Below, piece after piece: positions 19,004 through 24,419 of a stretch of DNA of 32,000 nucleotides (its first letter is position 1; each line of letters starts with the position of its first letter). The stretch is from Candidatus Peribacter riflensis (lineage in GTDB: Bacteria; Patescibacteriota; Gracilibacteria; Peribacterales; Peribacteraceae), in contig CP013062.1 of the NCBI GenBank assembly GCA_001430755.1, positions 720,001-752,000 on the forward strand, in the 5' to 3' direction. Position numbers and translations under genes: made by a program. The notes below the pieces were generated by a model. That model searched no databases and had not been told where the DNA came from. It was given only the letters and a program-made list of their open reading frames with translations.

Positions 19004-20331
19004 TGCCGAAAAGAATCTGCTCACTGGCCGTCTGCGCCGCGCTCCTCTTTGGCGCATCTCCCGCCTCTGCCGAAACGGCACCGGGCAATCTGCTCTACGA
19101 GGGACGGATATTGGATAGTGCACGGAATCCCGTCACCACCGCGATCGTGCTGCGCTTTTCCCTCTGGCAAACGGAGGACTGGGTTTCCGGCGACACATCG
19201 AGCGGTTCCATCAACACGGGCTCCGCGACCTACGGCGGGTGGTTCGAAGCACAGACCGTCACGCCGAATAGCAATGGAATCGTATCGGTGCGCGTGGGGA
19301 GCGACACGGCCCTGCCTGCCATGAATGCCGCGCAGCACACCTACTTCCAAGTGGAAGTGAAAGCCTCCGGCCAACCCGATACGAGTTACGAGCTCCTCGA
19401 TCCCACGGGGGATGCGGGCGCGGATACCGTCGATCGCAGACTGATCGGATCGGTGGCCTACGCCAAGAATGCCGAGAGCATCGGCGGCCGCACAGCGGGA
19501 ACGTCATCCGGCTCCCTGCTCCTGCTGGGTTCCGGCGGGCAGGTGGGCATCGCTCAGATGGCAAGCGGAACGAATGCAATGGCATTCACCGTCAACGCAG
19601 CGAATGCCGAAGGAGATGCAGTGCTGACATTCGGAAACGCGCTGCTCCCGGAAATGCTCCGGTTCTCAACCGCCGCGCAGCGGTTTGAATTTTCGGATGA
19701 CGTCTATGTTGCAGGGGCACTCGACGTCGCAGGAACGATGTCAGGACAAGCGCTCCAGGTGAACGGTGCGATGACGGGCAGCAGCCTCTACGTCGCGCAA
19801 AATTTCTCCGGAGCCGGCTTGGCCGATTGCACCGCAACAGGCAGCAAGCTGCTCTGGGATGCCGCCACACAGCGCTTCTCCTGCGGCACAGATCAGAATG
19901 CCAACAGTCTGCCCGATACAGCCACATTCCTCGACACGACCACGGAGTCGCTGACGACGAGTGACGTGGACCTGTGGGACGGCCCCTATCCAAACATCAC
20001 CGTGGATGCCGCAACGAACACGGTGCTGGTGAACGTGATGATTCGACTCGATGCGGATGGAGGCGATACCGAAACCGATGCGTTCTTCATCACACGAGAA
20101 ACGGATGGAACGGACCCCACATGCACCGATACGCAAGTGGGAGAGATGTTCCATGCCAGTATGACCACGAACAGCAACCAATTCACCACGGCGCACGCAA
20201 CGTTCGTCGATAGCCCCGGCGTGGCCGGAGAGGTGCGGTACACCGTCTGTTCCGATGCAGAGACCACCATCGGTACCGACAGTAACGATACGCTCTCGGT
20301 ACGCTTCAACTTCATCGAGCTGGGACTCTGA
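19000..20331 (+). CDS. Secreted protein of unknown function
   Basis: The maximal ORF starts at 18895, inside the upstream gene. The ATG at 19000 (MMPKRICSLAVCAALLFGASPASA-ETAPG) gives a clean signal peptide and an ATGA start/stop overlap with the upstream gene. Confidence 0.75.
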   Translation: MMPKRICSLAVCAALLFGASPASAETAPGNLLYEGRILDSARNPVTTAIVLRFSLWQTEDWVSGDTSSGSINTGSATYGGWFEAQTVTPNSNGIVSVRVGSDTALPAMNAAQHTYFQVEVKASGQPDTSYELLDPTGDAGADTVDRRLIGSVAYAKNAESIGGRTAGTSSGSLLLLGSGGQVGIAQMASGTNAMAFTVNAANAEGDAVLTFGNALLPEMLRFSTAAQRFEFSDDVYVAGALDVAGTMSGQALQVNGAMTGSSLYVAQNFSGAGLADCTATGSKLLWDAATQRFSCGTDQNANSLPDTATFLDTTTESLTTSDVDLWDGPYPNITVDAATNTVLVNVMIRLDADGGDTETDAFFITRETDGTDPTCTDTQVGEMFHASMTTNSNQFTTAHATFVDSPGVAGEVRYTVCSDAETTIGTDSNDTLSVRFNFIELGL

Positions 20332-20366
20332 GGAGCATTCAGCGCTTCTGGAGGAATAGTGACAAT

Positions 20367-20395
20367 TTGTGATAATTGTTCTTTTAATATATAAT
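20367..20395 (+). promoter_or_regulatory. Sigma70-like promoter upstream of the SMR gene
   Basis: TTGTGA (20367-20372), a 17-nt spacer, then a perfect TATAAT (20390-20395). The -35 is overlapped by the inverted repeat acaatt-N6-aattgt (20362-20379). It is followed by the 10-bp palindrome ggcaattgcc (20404-20413). Confidence 0.55.
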
Positions 20396-20470
20396 AGTGT
20401 TATGGCAATTGCCCTGAGAACTGCGCATTCCCTCAGTACGAAACACCTCAAACTCATACCCAAACAGCGC

Positions 20471-20785
20471 ATGATTTACCTCCTCGTGCTCGGCATCCTC
20501 ATCTCTGAAACGATCGCCCTGAGTTTCCTCAAAGAGTACTCGATGCATCCGAATGTGCTGTATTACGCCCTCGGACTCCTCTTCTACGTCTTCGTGACAT
20601 TGTTCCTCGTGAAGTCGTTCCAGTACGAAGGAGTGGGCGTGGTGAACGTGCTGTGGTCCGCCTTCTCCATCATGTTCGTCGTCGCTGCGGGCATCGTCGT
20701 CTTCAAAGAAAAAATCCATGCGCTGGAATTGCTCGGCGTCGTCATGGTCCTCGGCGGCGTGTCGCTGATACGGATATTTGAGTGA
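20471..20785 (+). CDS. Small multidrug resistance (SMR/EmrE-like) family transporter
   Basis: 104 aa from the ATG at 20471 (MIYLLVLGILISETIALSFLK). This has the conserved TM1 glutamate and four hydrophobic segments, with typical SMR length. The maximal ORF starts at GTG 20369, inside the promoter. The ATG at 20402 is an alternative start. Confidence 0.8.
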   Translation: MIYLLVLGILISETIALSFLKEYSMHPNVLYYALGLLFYVFVTLFLVKSFQYEGVGVVNVLWSAFSIMFVVAAGIVVFKEKIHALELLGVVMVLGGVSLIRIFE

Positions 20786-20818
20786 CGACAGCCGAAAAGA
20801 AACTGAGCGGTTACTTCA

Positions 20819-20847
20819 TTGAATCAGTACCGTGGTCTCGGTACCAT
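20819..20847 (+). promoter_or_regulatory. Candidate tRNA-Val promoter
   Basis: TTGAAT (20819-20824), a 17-nt spacer, then TACCAT (20842-20847), 13 nt before the mature tRNA 5' end. The same elements recur in inverted orientation at 21966-21995. Confidence 0.45.
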
Positions 20848-20860
20848 GAGCTGCGTCTTT

Positions 20861-20937
20861 GGACGATTAGCTCAGCTGGTTAGAGCGTGCGGTTCACATC
20901 CGCAAGGTCACTGGTTCGAATCCAGTATCGTCCACCA
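20861..20937 (+). tRNA. tRNA-Val(CAC): tRNA-Val (anticodon CAC), CCA encoded
   Basis: Hand-folded cloverleaf. Acceptor GGACGAT/ATCGTCC has 7 perfect pairs. D stem is GCTC/GAGC. Anticodon stem TGCGG/CCGCA carries loop TTCACAT. The variable loop is AGGTC. T stem ACTGG/CCAGT carries loop TTCGAAT. Discriminator A is followed by CCA. Confidence 0.95.
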
Positions 20938-21063
20938 TCCCTCCTCTGCTCGGCATCTAATCGGATTGTCTCGCCTCCCATTCACCTGTCCCGAAGACCG
21001 GTGCTATCTGGATAGGGTATGTAGCGAAAAAGCACCTGATCCACATGATGATTTCCTACGTTG

Positions 21064-21855
21064 TCAGAGAAATTTACTCAGTAGCTCACCGATCTGCCGT
21101 ACCAATTCCACGCCTCCTCCTATCGTCACGGCTTTCTCCAGTGTTCCGTAAGCTGCACTGATGATTTTTTTACTCGGACTTTGTTTGGATAGTTGGGTTT
21201 GGATTGTCGCTACATCAGCTTCAATATCCTTCTTTTTCTCTACGGGCAGATCAGAGGCATTCACCAACTTCAATAGTGATTCGAGTGCAGTAGAAACCTC
21301 AACATATGCTTCCTGCACAACAATATTGTGACTACCAACAACCACGTTCCTGCCCTGAATATTGATTACCGTTCTAGCTTCAAGTTGAGCAGGGGGCTGA
21401 GCGGCACGTTCTTCATCTGCAAGAAGCTGACTCTGTCTTACAAGTAGCGGATATGGCTCTACTCGCTGAAGAAAGCCCCATCCCATGATCTCATCAACTT
21501 TCGCTATGTATGCATCTATATGCTCTTGAGATGCTGAGGATTCTCCCGCATTCAATGCTGCCTGTTTTTCTAGCTCATACTTACGCTTGTAAATAGGCAA
21601 CAGCGCTTTCAGGAGACGGCATGATGCATCGCTAATATCGAATTCCGTAGTCATCCAGTCTTGGAAATCGCGCATGCCATGCCTCCGATTGAACTCGTTC
21701 ATAATGCTTCTATGTGCGCCTGATACGACAGAGAGTTCTTTCTCGATAGTGGCATTGCCTTTACGGTTTCTTTCGGCCAAGTAGGACTTATAGAGACCTA
21801 AAGCATCCCTGCAATAGCAGAGACTGTGGCCGCTAATTTCGATTGCTGGAGACAT
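21064..21855 (-). CDS. Orphan hypothetical protein (visibly lower GC than neighbours)
   Basis: 263-aa ORF with an ATG start (MSPAIEISGH...). I recognise no motif. It is mostly helical/charged with a central INIQGRNVVVGSHNIVVQ segment. It lies between the tRNA-Val and an inverted copy of the tRNA promoter plus 5' fragment. Confidence 0.7.
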   Translation of the reverse strand: MSPAIEISGHSLCYCRDALGLYKSYLAERNRKGNATIEKELSVVSGAHRSIMNEFNRRHGMRDFQDWMTTEFDISDASCRLLKALLPIYKRKYELEKQAALNAGESSASQEHIDAYIAKVDEIMGWGFLQRVEPYPLLVRQSQLLADEERAAQPPAQLEARTVINIQGRNVVVGSHNIVVQEAYVEVSTALESLLKLVNASDLPVEKKKDIEADVATIQTQLSKQSPSKKIISAAYGTLEKAVTIGGGVELVRQIGELLSKFL

Positions 21856-21892
21856 ATCAGTCTACAATAGACTTTACCTTGCCTTGGAAATC

Positions 21893-21995
21893 CTCTAACC
21901 AGCTGCCTGCCCGCCGAAGTCCCGCAGATGCGGGACGTAGGCGGGAGCTAATCGTCCAACGTCGCCATGGTACCAAAGCGGAGCAGATCTTCAAT
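21893..21995 (-). other. Inverted partial duplicate of the tRNA-Val promoter and first ~25 nt of the tRNA, interrupted by a 40-nt GC-rich hairpin
   Basis: The minus strand reads ATTGAA..GGTACCATG..TTGGACGATTAGCTC[40-nt insert]AGCTGGTTAGAG. This is collinear with plus-strand 20818-20885 (ATTGAA..GGTACCATG..TTGGACGATTAGCTC AGCTGGTTAGAG). No anticodon or T arm follows, so it is not a functional tRNA. Confidence 0.75.
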
Positions 21996-21998
21996 CAA

Positions 21999-22586
21999 CT
22001 ATGCCTTCGTAAACTCCGGATCCATCATGAGTCTGCTTTCTTCGGGCAGACTCTGCCCCTGGTACTTACTAAATGGCTTCACGTTGTAGGGCTGCTCGGC
22101 CGGACTCGTCATGACCTCGAATGCCAGCTGGCACACGCGCATGCCCGGGTAGAGCGCTACGGGAAGGCGGTTTAAGTTGCTGATCTCGAGCGTGATCGTG
22201 CCCGAGAAGCCGGGATCCACGAACCCCGCCGTGGAGTGGATAATGATACCGAGTCTCCCTAAGGAACTGCGACCCTCCACACGCACCACCAGATCATCAG
22301 GCACGGTGATGGTCTCTTCCGTCACGCCGAGGATGAATTCGCCCGGCTGCACGATGAACGGATCACCCTCTTTAACCTCGATCGTCCGCATGTTGCCGTG
22401 AAAGCTCTCGGGCTTCTTGGGGTCCAAAACGGCAAACTTGCTGTGCTCGTAGATCTTGAAAACAGAGCCCAGGTGCAGATCCATCGAGGAGGCATGGATG
22501 TGCCGGCCCAGATCACCGCGCGCCGATGTGATCTTCACGCGGCCGGATGCAATGGCCTGCCTGATGTCCTTATCCGAGAGAATCAT
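21999..22586 (-). CDS. dcd: dCTP deaminase (dUTPase superfamily)
   Basis: From the internal ATG at 22586 (MILSDKDIRQAIASGRVKI...), 195 aa. The motifs HASSMDLHLG, VEGRSSLGRLGI and GFVDPGFSGTITLE are typical of Dcd. The maximal ORF (to 22691) adds 35 unlikely residues. Confidence 0.88.
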   Translation of the reverse strand: MILSDKDIRQAIASGRVKITSARGDLGRHIHASSMDLHLGSVFKIYEHSKFAVLDPKKPESFHGNMRTIEVKEGDPFIVQPGEFILGVTEETITVPDDLVVRVEGRSSLGRLGIIIHSTAGFVDPGFSGTITLEISNLNRLPVALYPGMRVCQLAFEVMTSPAEQPYNVKPFSKYQGQSLPEESRLMMDPEFTKA

Positions 22587-22670
22587 GAGGCGCGATCCTA
22601 CCATAGAACAGGATGAAAATCGCGCGATTTTCCACCCGTGCGTGCGCGGATCGCGGTAGAATGCGGACCC

Positions 22671-24419
22671 ATGCCGATCCACACGGATCAACTCTCAGAC
22701 ATTCAGGAACGTGATACTCTCGCGGAGCAGGAATATACCCCCGAAAAGGAGACGCTGGCCCAGAGGCGCAGCAACCTGATTCAGTACTTCCGCGGCTTCA
22801 TTGCGGAGACATTCGACAAGCTGCACGTCGCCTCGGCGGAAGAAACGGAACGCCTGCACCAAGGGCTTTTGCACATCGGGCTCACGGAAGACGAAATCAC
22901 CCAATGGGAGGAGTACCGCGATACTATCGCCGAACGACAGAAGGAATCAGCACATCAGCTTTCTGGGCAACTGCATGCGCAGCTCGACCGTGCGCATGCG
23001 GAACATATCATCACCCGCGAATCGAAGCAGCGCTGGCTGGACCGCTTCACGGATCCCTCGCTCGGTTACAAGGCAAAGGAGTACTTCGTGCAGCACCAGA
23101 TGCCCTCCTACCTCGCCTCATGGGAAAAGGTGGCCAAGAAGCGCGTGAAGCTCCTCAATGATCCGAAGTTCACATCCCTCACGAAGACGGATGTATCGGA
23201 TCTCGATACCTTCCAGAAAGGCAAAGACTTCTTAGACCTCCACTACGAGAAGCGCGCGGACTTGAATGCGCGCGTCGAGGCCGCCATCACATCCAAGGCG
23301 CGCGGCATCGAACATCTGCACGGCAGAGCCAAGTCGCTCCTCGAGACGGCTGCGGCCGCCGGCGCCGTCAACCGCGACAGGCTGGGACGTTGGCTCCTCG
23401 ATAAGCTGAAAAAATTTCCCTCCGCGATGGCGCTGCAGGATTTCGTGGAGCATCAGCTGCCGGAGTACATCAAAACCTGGATCAAGATCCGGACGGAGTA
23501 TGACTGGGTGGAAGCCAAAATGAAGGAATCCGTCCCGCAGGGATTCAACCGCCTCACGCCCGAGAAGTTCCTCCTCTTGAGCTATCCGCAACGTAAGAGC
23601 TACGTGGAGCAGGCGAAGCAGAGGCTCAATCTCACCGAGGCGCCGTCGCCGCGCGAGATGGAGAACATCAAGCTCGGCATCCGCCACGCGCTCGATACCA
23701 AAGACTGGGAAGAAGCCGACAGCCTGCTCAAGAAGGCACGCACACTCTTCGATCAGGGCAAAGGAGTGGATAAGGACCGCTTCGAGCTCGATTCCATGCA
23801 ACGCTACCTCACAGAATTCCGGACAAAAGAGGAGAAAGAGAAACACCCGATGAACTCCGCGCGCGAAACGCTGGAGCAGATGCGCGTCGCGTTCTCACAG
23901 ATCCCGAAACCCCTCCAGCCCCTGTACCTCGCCGCCATGAACGACCCCGACAAACTCGGAGCCGTTGCGGCCTGCACCTACAACCGTGTGTGGTGCCGTG
24001 AGCACGGGTACCTCAACGATGAACGCGAGAAAGAGCTGGAGCAGGACGCGACCGTCTCGACGCAGACGCTCGCCCGGGAAGGCAAGCACCGCAAGAAGGG
24101 GCTCGACAACGTGAAACTCGGCGTGGTAGCCGATAAGCAGCATGACCCGGCGGTACGCCGCTACGACGAGGGAGAGTGGGCTCCGACCATCATTCATATG
24201 CCACCCGACACCTATCAGCACTTCGATACCATTCTGGAGTCGCGAAAGAACAATCACGCCTTCCGCTACTGGACCACCCTCATCCCCACGAACGTCACCT
24301 ACGAGGAGCAGCAGCACCTCGTGAAGAACGTGAACTGGGTGCTCAAGAGCGGCATCAGGAAGCTGAAGGAACAGGGTCTGATGTTCACGCTGACCGGCAA
24401 TCCTCCGTCGCTGAATTAG
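22671..24419 (+). CDS. Hypothetical alpha-helical protein with an internal duplication
   Basis: The maximal ORF begins at GTG 22638. The ATG at 22671 (MPIHTDQLSD) is preferred. Repeated segments are RWLDRF..KEYFVQHQMPSYLASWEKV and RWLLDK..LQDFVEHQLPEYIKTWIKI. No family recognised. Confidence 0.75.
   Translation: MPIHTDQLSDIQERDTLAEQEYTPEKETLAQRRSNLIQYFRGFIAETFDKLHVASAEETERLHQGLLHIGLTEDEITQWEEYRDTIAERQKESAHQLSGQLHAQLDRAHAEHIITRESKQRWLDRFTDPSLGYKAKEYFVQHQMPSYLASWEKVAKKRVKLLNDPKFTSLTKTDVSDLDTFQKGKDFLDLHYEKRADLNARVEAAITSKARGIEHLHGRAKSLLETAAAAGAVNRDRLGRWLLDKLKKFPSAMALQDFVEHQLPEYIKTWIKIRTEYDWVEAKMKESVPQGFNRLTPEKFLLLSYPQRKSYVEQAKQRLNLTEAPSPREMENIKLGIRHALDTKDWEEADSLLKKARTLFDQGKGVDKDRFELDSMQRYLTEFRTKEEKEKHPMNSARETLEQMRVAFSQIPKPLQPLYLAAMNDPDKLGAVAACTYNRVWCREHGYLNDEREKELEQDATVSTQTLAREGKHRKKGLDNVKLGVVADKQHDPAVRRYDEGEWAPTIIHMPPDTYQHFDTILESRKNNHAFRYWTTLIPTNVTYEEQQHLVKNVNWVLKSGIRKLKEQGLMFTLTGNPPSLN

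Follow-up and report, generated by a model that had tools for sequence, protein, structure and literature searches.

A probable hairpin-plugged remnant of an ancestral tRNA-Val gene beside a low-GC orphan gene in Candidatus Peribacter riflensis

REP/BIME elements, which go with RAYT transposases, and the Rickettsia palindromic elements are short palindromes conserved in structure. Sublocation rules for genomic islands in tRNA genes were reportedly set out by Williams in 2002, and mitochondrial mobile open reading frames (ORFs) in Allomyces atp6 are said to bring along a second copy of the end of the gene. When genomic islands reside at tRNA genes, incomplete copies of the tRNA (att sites) are left behind (PMC9897764). 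T4 SegB is a free-standing GIY-YIG homing endonuclease encoded in a phage tRNA cluster (PMC2330249), and Ssn proteins are single-domain GIY-YIG nucleases of single-stranded DNA that recognise the hairpin repeats NTS/SRM (Chenal et al. 2025, PMC11893778); tRNA genes are not mentioned in the Ssn paper (PMC11893778). Here we analyze a locus at which two inverted copies of a promoter and the 5′ end of tRNA-Val(CAC) flank a low-GC orphan ORF. It lies in a 32,000-nucleotide (nt) stretch of DNA, hereafter the window, which corresponds to positions 720001-752000 of the single-contig, 1.25-Mb genome (98% complete; coded G000) of Candidatus Peribacter riflensis. Probably, though by no means certainly, the two copies are old paralogous, convergent promoter and tRNA-Val modules, of which one (P2) works, whereas the other (P1) is a stub joined to a foreign gene, the whole being one product of an unusually heavy turnover of tRNA genes in these small-genome bacteria.

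The copy on the plus strand (left copy) consists of ATTGAA (20818-20823), 16 nt, GGTACCATG (20840-20848), agctgcgtct, TTGGACGATTAGCTC and AGCTGGTTAGAG, the last of these ending at 20885. The copy on the minus strand (right copy) reads ATTGAA (21995-21990), 15 nt, GGTACCATG (21974-21966), gcgacg, TTGGACGATTAGCTC ending at 21945, a 40-nt insert (21944-21905) and AGCTGGTTAGAG (21904-21893). All four collinear inverted blocks of the original prediction (6, 9, 15 and 12 nt), as well as the 40-nt insert, are present as it described them. A repeat search recovered the inverted pairs I1 (21 nt, 90%) and I5 (13 nt, 100%), the internal hairpin of the insert being I2, and the pattern GGTACCATG-N(6-12)-TTGGACGATTAGCTC occurs twice in the window compared to zero occurrences in 100 shuffles. 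The tRNA start in the right copy, GGACGATTAGCTC (21957-21945), is preceded by TT, as is that in the left copy, and this 13-mer is found genome-wide (1.25 Mb) only in the left and right copies.

The left copy contains the sole intact tRNA-Val(CAC) gene of the genome (20861-20937, plus strand, GGACGAT allele), called by ARAGORN and matched by the Rfam tRNA model with 70.2 bits. It is one of 46 tRNA genes, among which every anticodon is represented once. In the right copy, tRNA positions 1-13 (21945-21957, minus strand) and 14-25 (21893-21904, minus strand) are exact inverted matches to 20861-20873 and 20874-20885, respectively, and the 40-nt hairpin (21905-21944, minus strand) separates them at D-loop position 13/14. 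Beyond position 25, a junction or leader of 37 nt (21856-21892, minus strand), in which a small hairpin AGTCTA-TTG-TAGACT is predicted, leads to the ATG (21855) of a 263-amino acid (aa) ORF. The claim that the right copy loses its tRNA character and runs into this ATG holds, with both Rfam and ARAGORN calling the left copy only; even at a permissive threshold, Rfam gave no match at the right copy or in the ORF leader. The right copy was also considered as an intron-containing or split tRNA, which is ruled out, as the anticodon arm, the T arm and the 3′ acceptor strand are all missing from it and there is no 3′ fragment anywhere in the segment.

The right copy directly adjoins dcd (21999-22691, minus strand; dCTP deaminase, Pfam DCD E=2e-47), the conserved anchor gene of the tRNA-Val locus. 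Relatives retrieved via dcd carry the names Candidatus Peribacteria, Peribacteraceae or Peregrinibacteria, all of the candidate phyla radiation (CPR), and in 46 of 80 family loci tRNA-Val(CAC) lies within 2.5 kb downstream of dcd. In two genomes (G008 and G002) and three metagenome loci (L077, L080 and L081; metagenome loci are coded L throughout), TTCATTGAAGATC-N-GCTTTGGTACCATG starts 2 nt past the dcd stop and is followed by an intact tRNA-Val on the dcd strand. The right copy of the window is in exactly the same place and orientation as the post-dcd promoter of these five. Its promoter module, P1 (21958-21998, minus strand), which includes the ATTGAA and GGTACCATG boxes located above and now faces the orphan ORF, has a 48-nt core with 73-78% identity to the five orthologues but only 56-58% to any P2-type promoter, that of its own genome included. 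Because of this position and the P1 orthology, we regard the right copy as a resident tRNA-Val gene reduced to a stub and not as a captured duplicate. Judged from sequence, it is the remnant of the original tRNA-Val gene at its ancestral site, with P1 as the ancestral tRNA-Val promoter. The 25 tRNA bases of the stub are still identical to those of the live tRNA.

These relationships bear on the mechanism put forward in the original prediction, namely, that template switching or a non-canonical element recently duplicated the tRNA promoter and 5′ end in inverted orientation beyond the orphan gene, which thereby captured a promoter. The inverted blocks of 6, 9, 15 and 12 nt do bracket the ORF, and neither an integrase nor a direct repeat accompanies them. 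However, outside the functional boxes the two copies are 55-58% identical, whereas either one shows 73-86% identity to its orthologues from other genomes, and the supposed copy sits exactly at the ancestral gene position. We therefore give a recent duplication hardly any credence; neither inversion nor template switching is needed or shown, both promoters having orthologues and the duplication predating the lineages. What stands of the proposed captured promoter with a tRNA-like leader is that an intact tRNA-type promoter faces the ORF, making expression plausible, but this promoter appears to be resident at the ancestral site and not captured. An intact tRNA at the site of the right copy, which would have spoken against the original prediction, is largely what comparison of related genomes revealed, as it is present in all five relatives with a post-dcd promoter, although no relative has both copies.

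The left copy is associated with a different gene. A gene for an SMR/EamA-like small transporter (20369-20785, plus strand; Pfam Multi_Drug_Res E=1.9e-5) forms the left border of the variable slot, and SMR orthologues adjoin tRNA-Val in G008, G002, G007, G003 and L074. The stretch from the SMR stop (20785) to the tRNA contains cgacagccgaaaagaaactg, TTCATTGAAT and gtggtctcGGTACCATGagct, and is 82-86% identical over 82 nt to its counterparts in G007, G003 and L074. In these three, P2 lies upstream of tRNA-Val on the SMR strand, convergent with dcd. In the window, P2 and its flank occupy 20786-20860 (plus strand) upstream of the intact tRNA, and the -10 box matches the tRNA promoter pattern of the genome. 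This promoter with its flank shares 78-86% identity with those of G007, G003 and L074, compared to only 55-58% with the right copy. The left copy, that is, P2 together with the intact tRNA, is by these comparisons orthologous to the SMR-linked tRNA-Val of G007, G003 and L074. Since P1 and P2 have the -35 and -10 boxes and the spacing in common, we consider them paralogues. Furthermore, each promoter has its own orthologues elsewhere, and therefore the duplication predates these lineages and is not tied to the arrival of the orphan gene.

G000 is the sole genome seen to carry both P1 and P2. P1 is absent from G003, G007 and L074, which have three differing dcd C-terminal tails, while G000 has the P1-type tail (EFTKA-stop). 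The tails fit an independent loss of the P1 copy in these three lineages. The simplest reading, we infer, is that two convergent tRNA-Val modules were present in an ancestor and were then lost differentially. As for the tRNA itself, tRNA-Val alleles (GGACGAT, GGGCGG and GGGCAAT types) are freely combined with P1 and P2, for example, P1 with GGGCGG in L081 and P2 with GGACGAT in G000; the G000 tRNA-Val(CAC) sequence is identical to tRNA-Val of G008, and stubs are often of a different allele than the live gene behind them. A further arrangement of the three genes was observed in L084 (4500-6950), where dcd is followed by the SMR gene on its own strand without an intervening tRNA, and tRNA-Val with a P2-like promoter lies 1.1 kb further on, in convergent orientation.

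Alternatively, the lineage may have possessed the P2 tRNA alone, with the dcd end, P1, the plugged stub and the ORF arriving jointly by recombination from a relative in which the ORF already resided in the P1 tRNA gene. L074, the closest relative by dcd protein (89.7% identity), has neither P1 nor the ORF, and its tRNA 3′ end abuts the dcd stop. In addition, the ORF is clearly horizontally mobile (see below), and the allele and promoter combinations in L081 and G000 testify to reshuffling among lineages. Against such an import, a sliding-window comparison of dcd (78-84% identity) detected no 3′ segment markedly closer to the P1-type lineages and no breakpoint signal. Moreover, any donor whose P1 tRNA was dead would have required another tRNA-Val of its own, so that the two-copy problem is merely relocated. 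On balance, we consider joint import unlikely.

The 40-nt insert is one copy of a dispersed hairpin family (type A), which was matched in 109 of 200 family genomes, with several copies in each, when the stub was used as a BLAST query. The type-A consensus is CCCnCCTTCGTCCCGC-loop-GCGGGACTACGGCGGGCAGGCAG. An alignment of 34 copies defines a 14-base pair imperfect stem in which 90.7% of cells are paired. The stem has 37 doubly changed cells, compared to 12 in shuffles and at most 6 in slid controls, and two conserved mismatches flank a covarying A-T/T-A pair. In G000, a covariance model (E<0.01) finds ~35 copies, namely, the window copy, those at 116477-116523, 640286-640334, 1120709-1120749, 673506-673555 and 440553-440600, and ~30 others. 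Eleven G000 copies lie at most 150 nt from a tRNA gene, against 0.5 expected. Both in relatives and in G000, the usual type-A site is after TAGCTC (position 13) of a tRNA 5′ piece, which itself is located 75-220 nt upstream of an intact tRNA of the same kind. Many different tRNAs are involved, and 13/14 is the commonest hairpin site in stubs of other tRNAs. A second hairpin type (type B, CCCGCCCG...CGGGCGGG) is found at positions 7/8 and 21/22. The family was considered as a RAYT-type REP, which was rejected, since no match to the Y1/RAYT transposase (PF01797) was obtained in the 98%-complete, single-contig genome, in a search in which the controls matched.

Type-A sequence also occurs in other settings. 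In L041 (G001:C17:62151-62317), at least four type-A units are repeated in tandem every 39-48 nt, away from any tRNA. A shortened type-A motif (…CTTCGGCGGGCAGGCAG) is found inside a larger palindromic repeat, TGTCATGGTTCGAC…CTCACCATGACA, at window position ~3549 (genome position 723549) and at genome positions 1157015-1157050 and 202330-202366.

Incomplete tRNA copies are not confined to tRNA-Val(CAC). In a census of the flanks of the 46 G000 tRNA genes, based on 12-mers with one mismatch allowed, more than 12 of the 46 genes had partial copies of themselves in direct orientation 70-260 nt away, with 5′ pieces upstream and 3′ pieces downstream. Hairpins in these partial copies are often positioned at cloverleaf 7/8, 13/14, 21/22 or in the T loop. 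Fragments of the 5′ end were found upstream of tRNA-Asn, Arg(GCG), Val(TAC), Pro(TGG), Gly(GCC) (twice), Trp and Asp, and looser ones upstream of Ile(GAT), Gln(CTG) and Arg(CCT); 3′ fragments were found downstream of Asn, Ser(TGA), Lys(CTT), Gly(TCC), Glu(TTC), Arg(CCT) and Trp. The only inverted and distant stub in the census is that of tRNA-Val(CAC). Stubs at other tRNAs have diverged from the live tRNA (2 of 13 positions changed for tRNA-Ile and 2 of 13 in G006), and stub right ends lie 0 to ~20 nt beyond the hairpin. In another family member (L149:4315-4572 and L164:4253-4302), five tandem copies of the tRNA-Val(CAC) 3′ half (positions 36-51 plus 54-77) follow the tRNA with a period of ~63 nt.

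In relatives, stubs of this kind are accompanied by small nuclease genes. L074 has, in order, P2, stub positions 1-21, a type-B hairpin, positions 22-36, an 84-aa GIY-YIG ORF (Pfam E=2e-12), an intact tRNA-Val of another allele and, directly after it, the dcd stop. The last seven codons and the stop of the GIY-YIG ORF overlap positions 1-22 of the next element. The L074 stub (within L074:648-1039) is chimeric, combining the resident GGGCGGT acceptor bases with a donor-type CAGCTGGTTA D-loop, and looks like a recombination signature, with the crossover junction that homology-driven cassette insertion would leave. The same cassette is present in G017 and G077, and the GIY-YIG ORFs of L074 and G017 are 82-84 aa long. 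Among the top 30 GIY-YIG matches, each from a different genus of the family, 24 have a tRNA no more than 300 nt away, in every case on their own strand and with matching stubs, in the layouts stub-hairpin-ORF-tRNA or tRNA-ORF-3′ stub.

G000 itself encodes seven single-domain GIY-YIG ORFs of ~70-85 aa (1172953-1173201, 674336-674554, 362463-362693, 53454-53666, 315050-315274, 548091-548297 and 825916-826107), six of which are within 200 nt of a same-strand tRNA gene. In the copy at tRNA-Asp, the stop codon is the D-loop TAG inside the tRNA, as in the tRNA-Val cassettes of L074 and G017. All seven are located elsewhere in the genome, and no GIY-YIG match was obtained in the 32,000-nt window. The tRNA-Val(CAC) locus has in common with the cassettes that the resident promoter is kept and that a GC-rich hairpin occupies a cloverleaf loop position (13/14). 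It has no direct-orientation 5′ stub upstream of the intact tRNA, its stub being inverted and 1 kb away. More tentatively, and as a possibility to which we attach limited weight, the hairpin-plugged stub could be the left arm of a CPR tRNA-targeting mobile system, composed of small Ssn-like GIY-YIG nucleases and loop-seeking hairpins, which traps unrelated cargo (here an ORF resembling a defence candidate) to be expressed from hijacked tRNA promoters; the same process would also drive tRNA allele replacement and flipping between lineages.

The cargo itself, the 263-aa ORF (21064-21855, minus strand), has a GC content of 0.45, compared to 0.585 for the genome. As the original prediction stated, the orphan gene is of low GC, with values of 0.44-0.46 over 21000-21900. 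No usable Pfam match (the single one was below threshold, E=0.057) and no NCBIfam match was found for the protein. Its AlphaFold model (pLDDT 83) is all-helical with two domains and had no fold match in PDB with E<0.1. Residues 162-260 match PADLOC PDC-M14B (E=1.4e-6), and the C-terminal region also matches phrog_16834. An exhaustive search identified 15 full-length relatives of the ORF and ~75 proteins with the C-terminal module alone. This helical module of ~100 aa (window 21064-21360) is found in ~75 representative proteins of 75-330 aa with unrelated N-termini, as well as in PDC-M14B and phrog_16834, and appears to be a widespread uncharacterised domain. Regarding the PDC-M14 candidate defence system, the match does not extend over full-length PDC-M14B and the neighbours of the ORF are dcd and the tRNA; a role in defence is no more than a hint.

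Homologues of the ORF are located next to an hsdR-like gene (G002), near tRNA-Lys (G100), next to ligA (L058, 79% identity) and next to an HD_4 gene (L059). Given the low GC and homologues in four unrelated contexts, the ORF is best regarded as a horizontally mobile single gene. No inverted stub or stub leader was found beside the homologues in G100, G002, L058 and L059. Between the tRNA and the convergent ORF lies a 126-nt spacer (20938-21063), part of the lineage-specific segment, which contains no tRNA fragment and, compared by eye, has no visible likeness to the matching stretch of G007, G003 and L058.

Upstream of most G000 tRNA genes there is a shared -10-like element, TGnTAnnnT (e.g. 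TGCTATGCT, TGCTACACT and GGTACCAT), whose end lies ~10-17 nt ahead of the mature 5′ terminus; a clear -35 consensus was not seen at these genes. A generic sigma-70 and terminator scan returned no sites and misses the G000 tRNA promoters, and our promoter calls rest on box conservation and on the genome's own tRNA promoter pattern. The -10 box of P1 (TGGTACCAT) fits TGnTAnnnT, and the GIY-YIG ORFs of the cassettes likewise lie behind a resident tRNA promoter and stub, which makes P1-driven expression of the cargo plausible. Most likely, P1 now transcribes the ORF with a leader composed of tRNA positions 1-13, the hairpin and positions 14-25.

Such a leader raises the possibility that the stub and hairpin are no passive scar, having instead been kept as an RNA element that serves the ORF, be it through stability, processing or regulation. 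Neither the 25 tRNA bases nor the two promoter boxes have changed, the predicted fold of the 110-nt leader is more stable than those of shuffled sequences (-43.1 kcal/mol, z = -2.75), the stem of the hairpin family is maintained by compensatory changes, and the GIY-YIG cassette ORFs are also preceded by such a leader. On the other hand, the divergence of other stubs from their tRNAs and the variable right ends described above are what decay predicts, covariation in mobile repeats can mirror selection on source copies and not selection in place, no Rfam family matches the leader, and the homologues of the ORF elsewhere do without it. Taken together, these observations make a selected tRNA-like leader quite improbable.

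The metagenomic origin of the genome and the position of the junctions at repeats could indicate an assembly artefact that joins two strains at a shared tRNA. However, two contigs of 12 and 105 kb, assembled from different samples, run through the entire region 20300-22800 at 100% identity, and a further four, shorter and from other samples again, are 99.8-100% identical over the parts that they cover, each junction included. Because contigs from independent samples agree, with the same isomer in all six assemblies, the arrangement described in the original prediction is genuine and not a chimera, and the probability of an artefact is negligible. No near-identical strain with an empty site was found in one metagenome scan.

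The same assemblies bear on the possibility that the segment is invertible, with the 13-nt and 12-nt inverted repeats flipping 20874-21944 and thus swapping the promoters of the tRNA body and the ORF. The geometry permits this, both isomers would keep an intact tRNA if the crossover fell within positions 1-13, and in other samples short-read contigs terminate at the repeats or close to them (20862 and 21879). Such contig ends are, however, expected at a tRNA where co-occurring relatives have an identical one, and the isomer was the same in six of six assemblies. Furthermore, the repeats are too short for efficient RecA recombination, there is no match to a resolvase or invertase (PF00239) anywhere in the genome, and its single tyrosine recombinase, the only PF00589 match, is at 489.5 kb, ~250 kb away. 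Inversion of the segment is thus very unlikely, as is an invertase switch, there being no invertase gene at the locus. An integrase island was rejected for want of an integrase gene at the locus. One island feature, foreign composition, is present in that the low-GC segment begins at the 3′ end of the intact tRNA. In agreement with the original prediction, the tRNA 3′ end has no direct repeat of the kind that integrases leave: the fragment census yielded none for tRNA-Val(CAC) at the distal border, which is formed by the inverted 5′ stub.

The following history would account for the locus. P2, whose position is common to a subgroup of the genus, would have become the promoter of the working tRNA-Val(CAC) gene in the G000 lineage, and P1 would occupy the position ancestral to the family. 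With a second working copy at P2, the P1 gene may have been dispensable. It would then have been struck by a loop-seeking hairpin at D-loop position 13/14, and the sequence past position 25 would have been swapped for ~0.95 kb of foreign, low-GC DNA with one mobile gene; either event could have come first. P1 may have survived undamaged either through its present use by the ORF or because little time has passed since the event. These steps would be part of a family-wide turnover in which parts of tRNA genes are duplicated and replaced, in relatives presumably via small GIY-YIG cassettes that bring a replacement tRNA, and in which displaced tRNA pieces may persist as hairpin-plugged stubs.

Several observations weigh against this reconstruction. 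Neither two intact tRNA-Val(CAC) genes nor another inverted P1 stub was found in the 80 systematically screened family loci or in the other relatives' loci that were read, ~90 loci altogether. Because no relative with two intact copies was found, the two-copy ancestor is deduced solely from the presence of both promoter types in G000. The genus is star-like, with dcd DNA 78-84% identical to that of all relatives, and for this reason vertical descent of the P1 stub is inseparable from its later import. The identity of the stub to the live tRNA implies either that the P1 gene was disrupted recently or that the two were homogenised by conversion. In two respects the G000 tRNA-Val locus departs from every typical cassette: there is no GIY-YIG gene, and the intact tRNA is inverted. 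Finally, P1 is below the threshold of the generic sigma-70 scan, and the ORF might have a promoter of its own in TATTGT, located 9 nt upstream of the ATG.

If the proposed history is correct, even a single-copy tRNA gene in a streamlined genome of 1.25 Mb is not a stable landmark, since the same tRNA-Val gene would have repeatedly changed its strand, promoter, allele and neighbours within one genus. In addition, the promoter of a dead tRNA copy appears to have been re-used for a horizontally acquired gene. We found no description of this tRNA-gene turnover in the searchable literature. The locus thus seems to add a variant (inverted, with cargo and without a nuclease gene) to a class of selfish DNA that is associated with tRNAs in candidate-phyla bacteria, is apparently unpublished and is made up of small GIY-YIG nucleases, loop-targeting hairpins and half-tRNA duplications. 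Annotation pipelines will overlook such stubs, and naive tRNA island logic will misinterpret them.

Compared to the systems introduced at the outset, the type-A hairpins resemble REP/BIME and Rickettsia palindromic elements in being short imperfect palindromes of conserved structure, with tens of dispersed copies, that can sit within the sequence of other genes. They differ from REP/RAYT in that G000 has no Y1/RAYT gene and that the hairpins favour loop and junction positions of tRNA-gene copies (7/8, 13/14, 21/22). The cassettes of L074, G017 and G077 are similar to SegB and the Allomyces atp6 elements, in that a small GIY-YIG ORF splits tRNA-Val and supplies a substitute tRNA, while the 5′ part that it displaces persists as a stub. 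Unlike SegB, the putative homing nucleases of these relatives are single-domain proteins of 82-84 aa without a DNA-binding domain and are encoded in a cellular genome, and the G000 locus lacks a GIY-YIG gene, its cargo being an unrelated 263-aa ORF. G000 also resembles genomes with Ssn in having several single-domain GIY-YIG genes of ~80-100 aa together with dozens of short GC-rich hairpin repeats, a likeness in protein size and domain. With tRNA islands, the locus shares foreign low-GC DNA directly 3′ of an intact tRNA and a partial tRNA copy that marks the far end. The partial copy here, however, comprises the 5′ end and the promoter in inverted orientation, and would represent an old resident gene rather than a duplicated att core.

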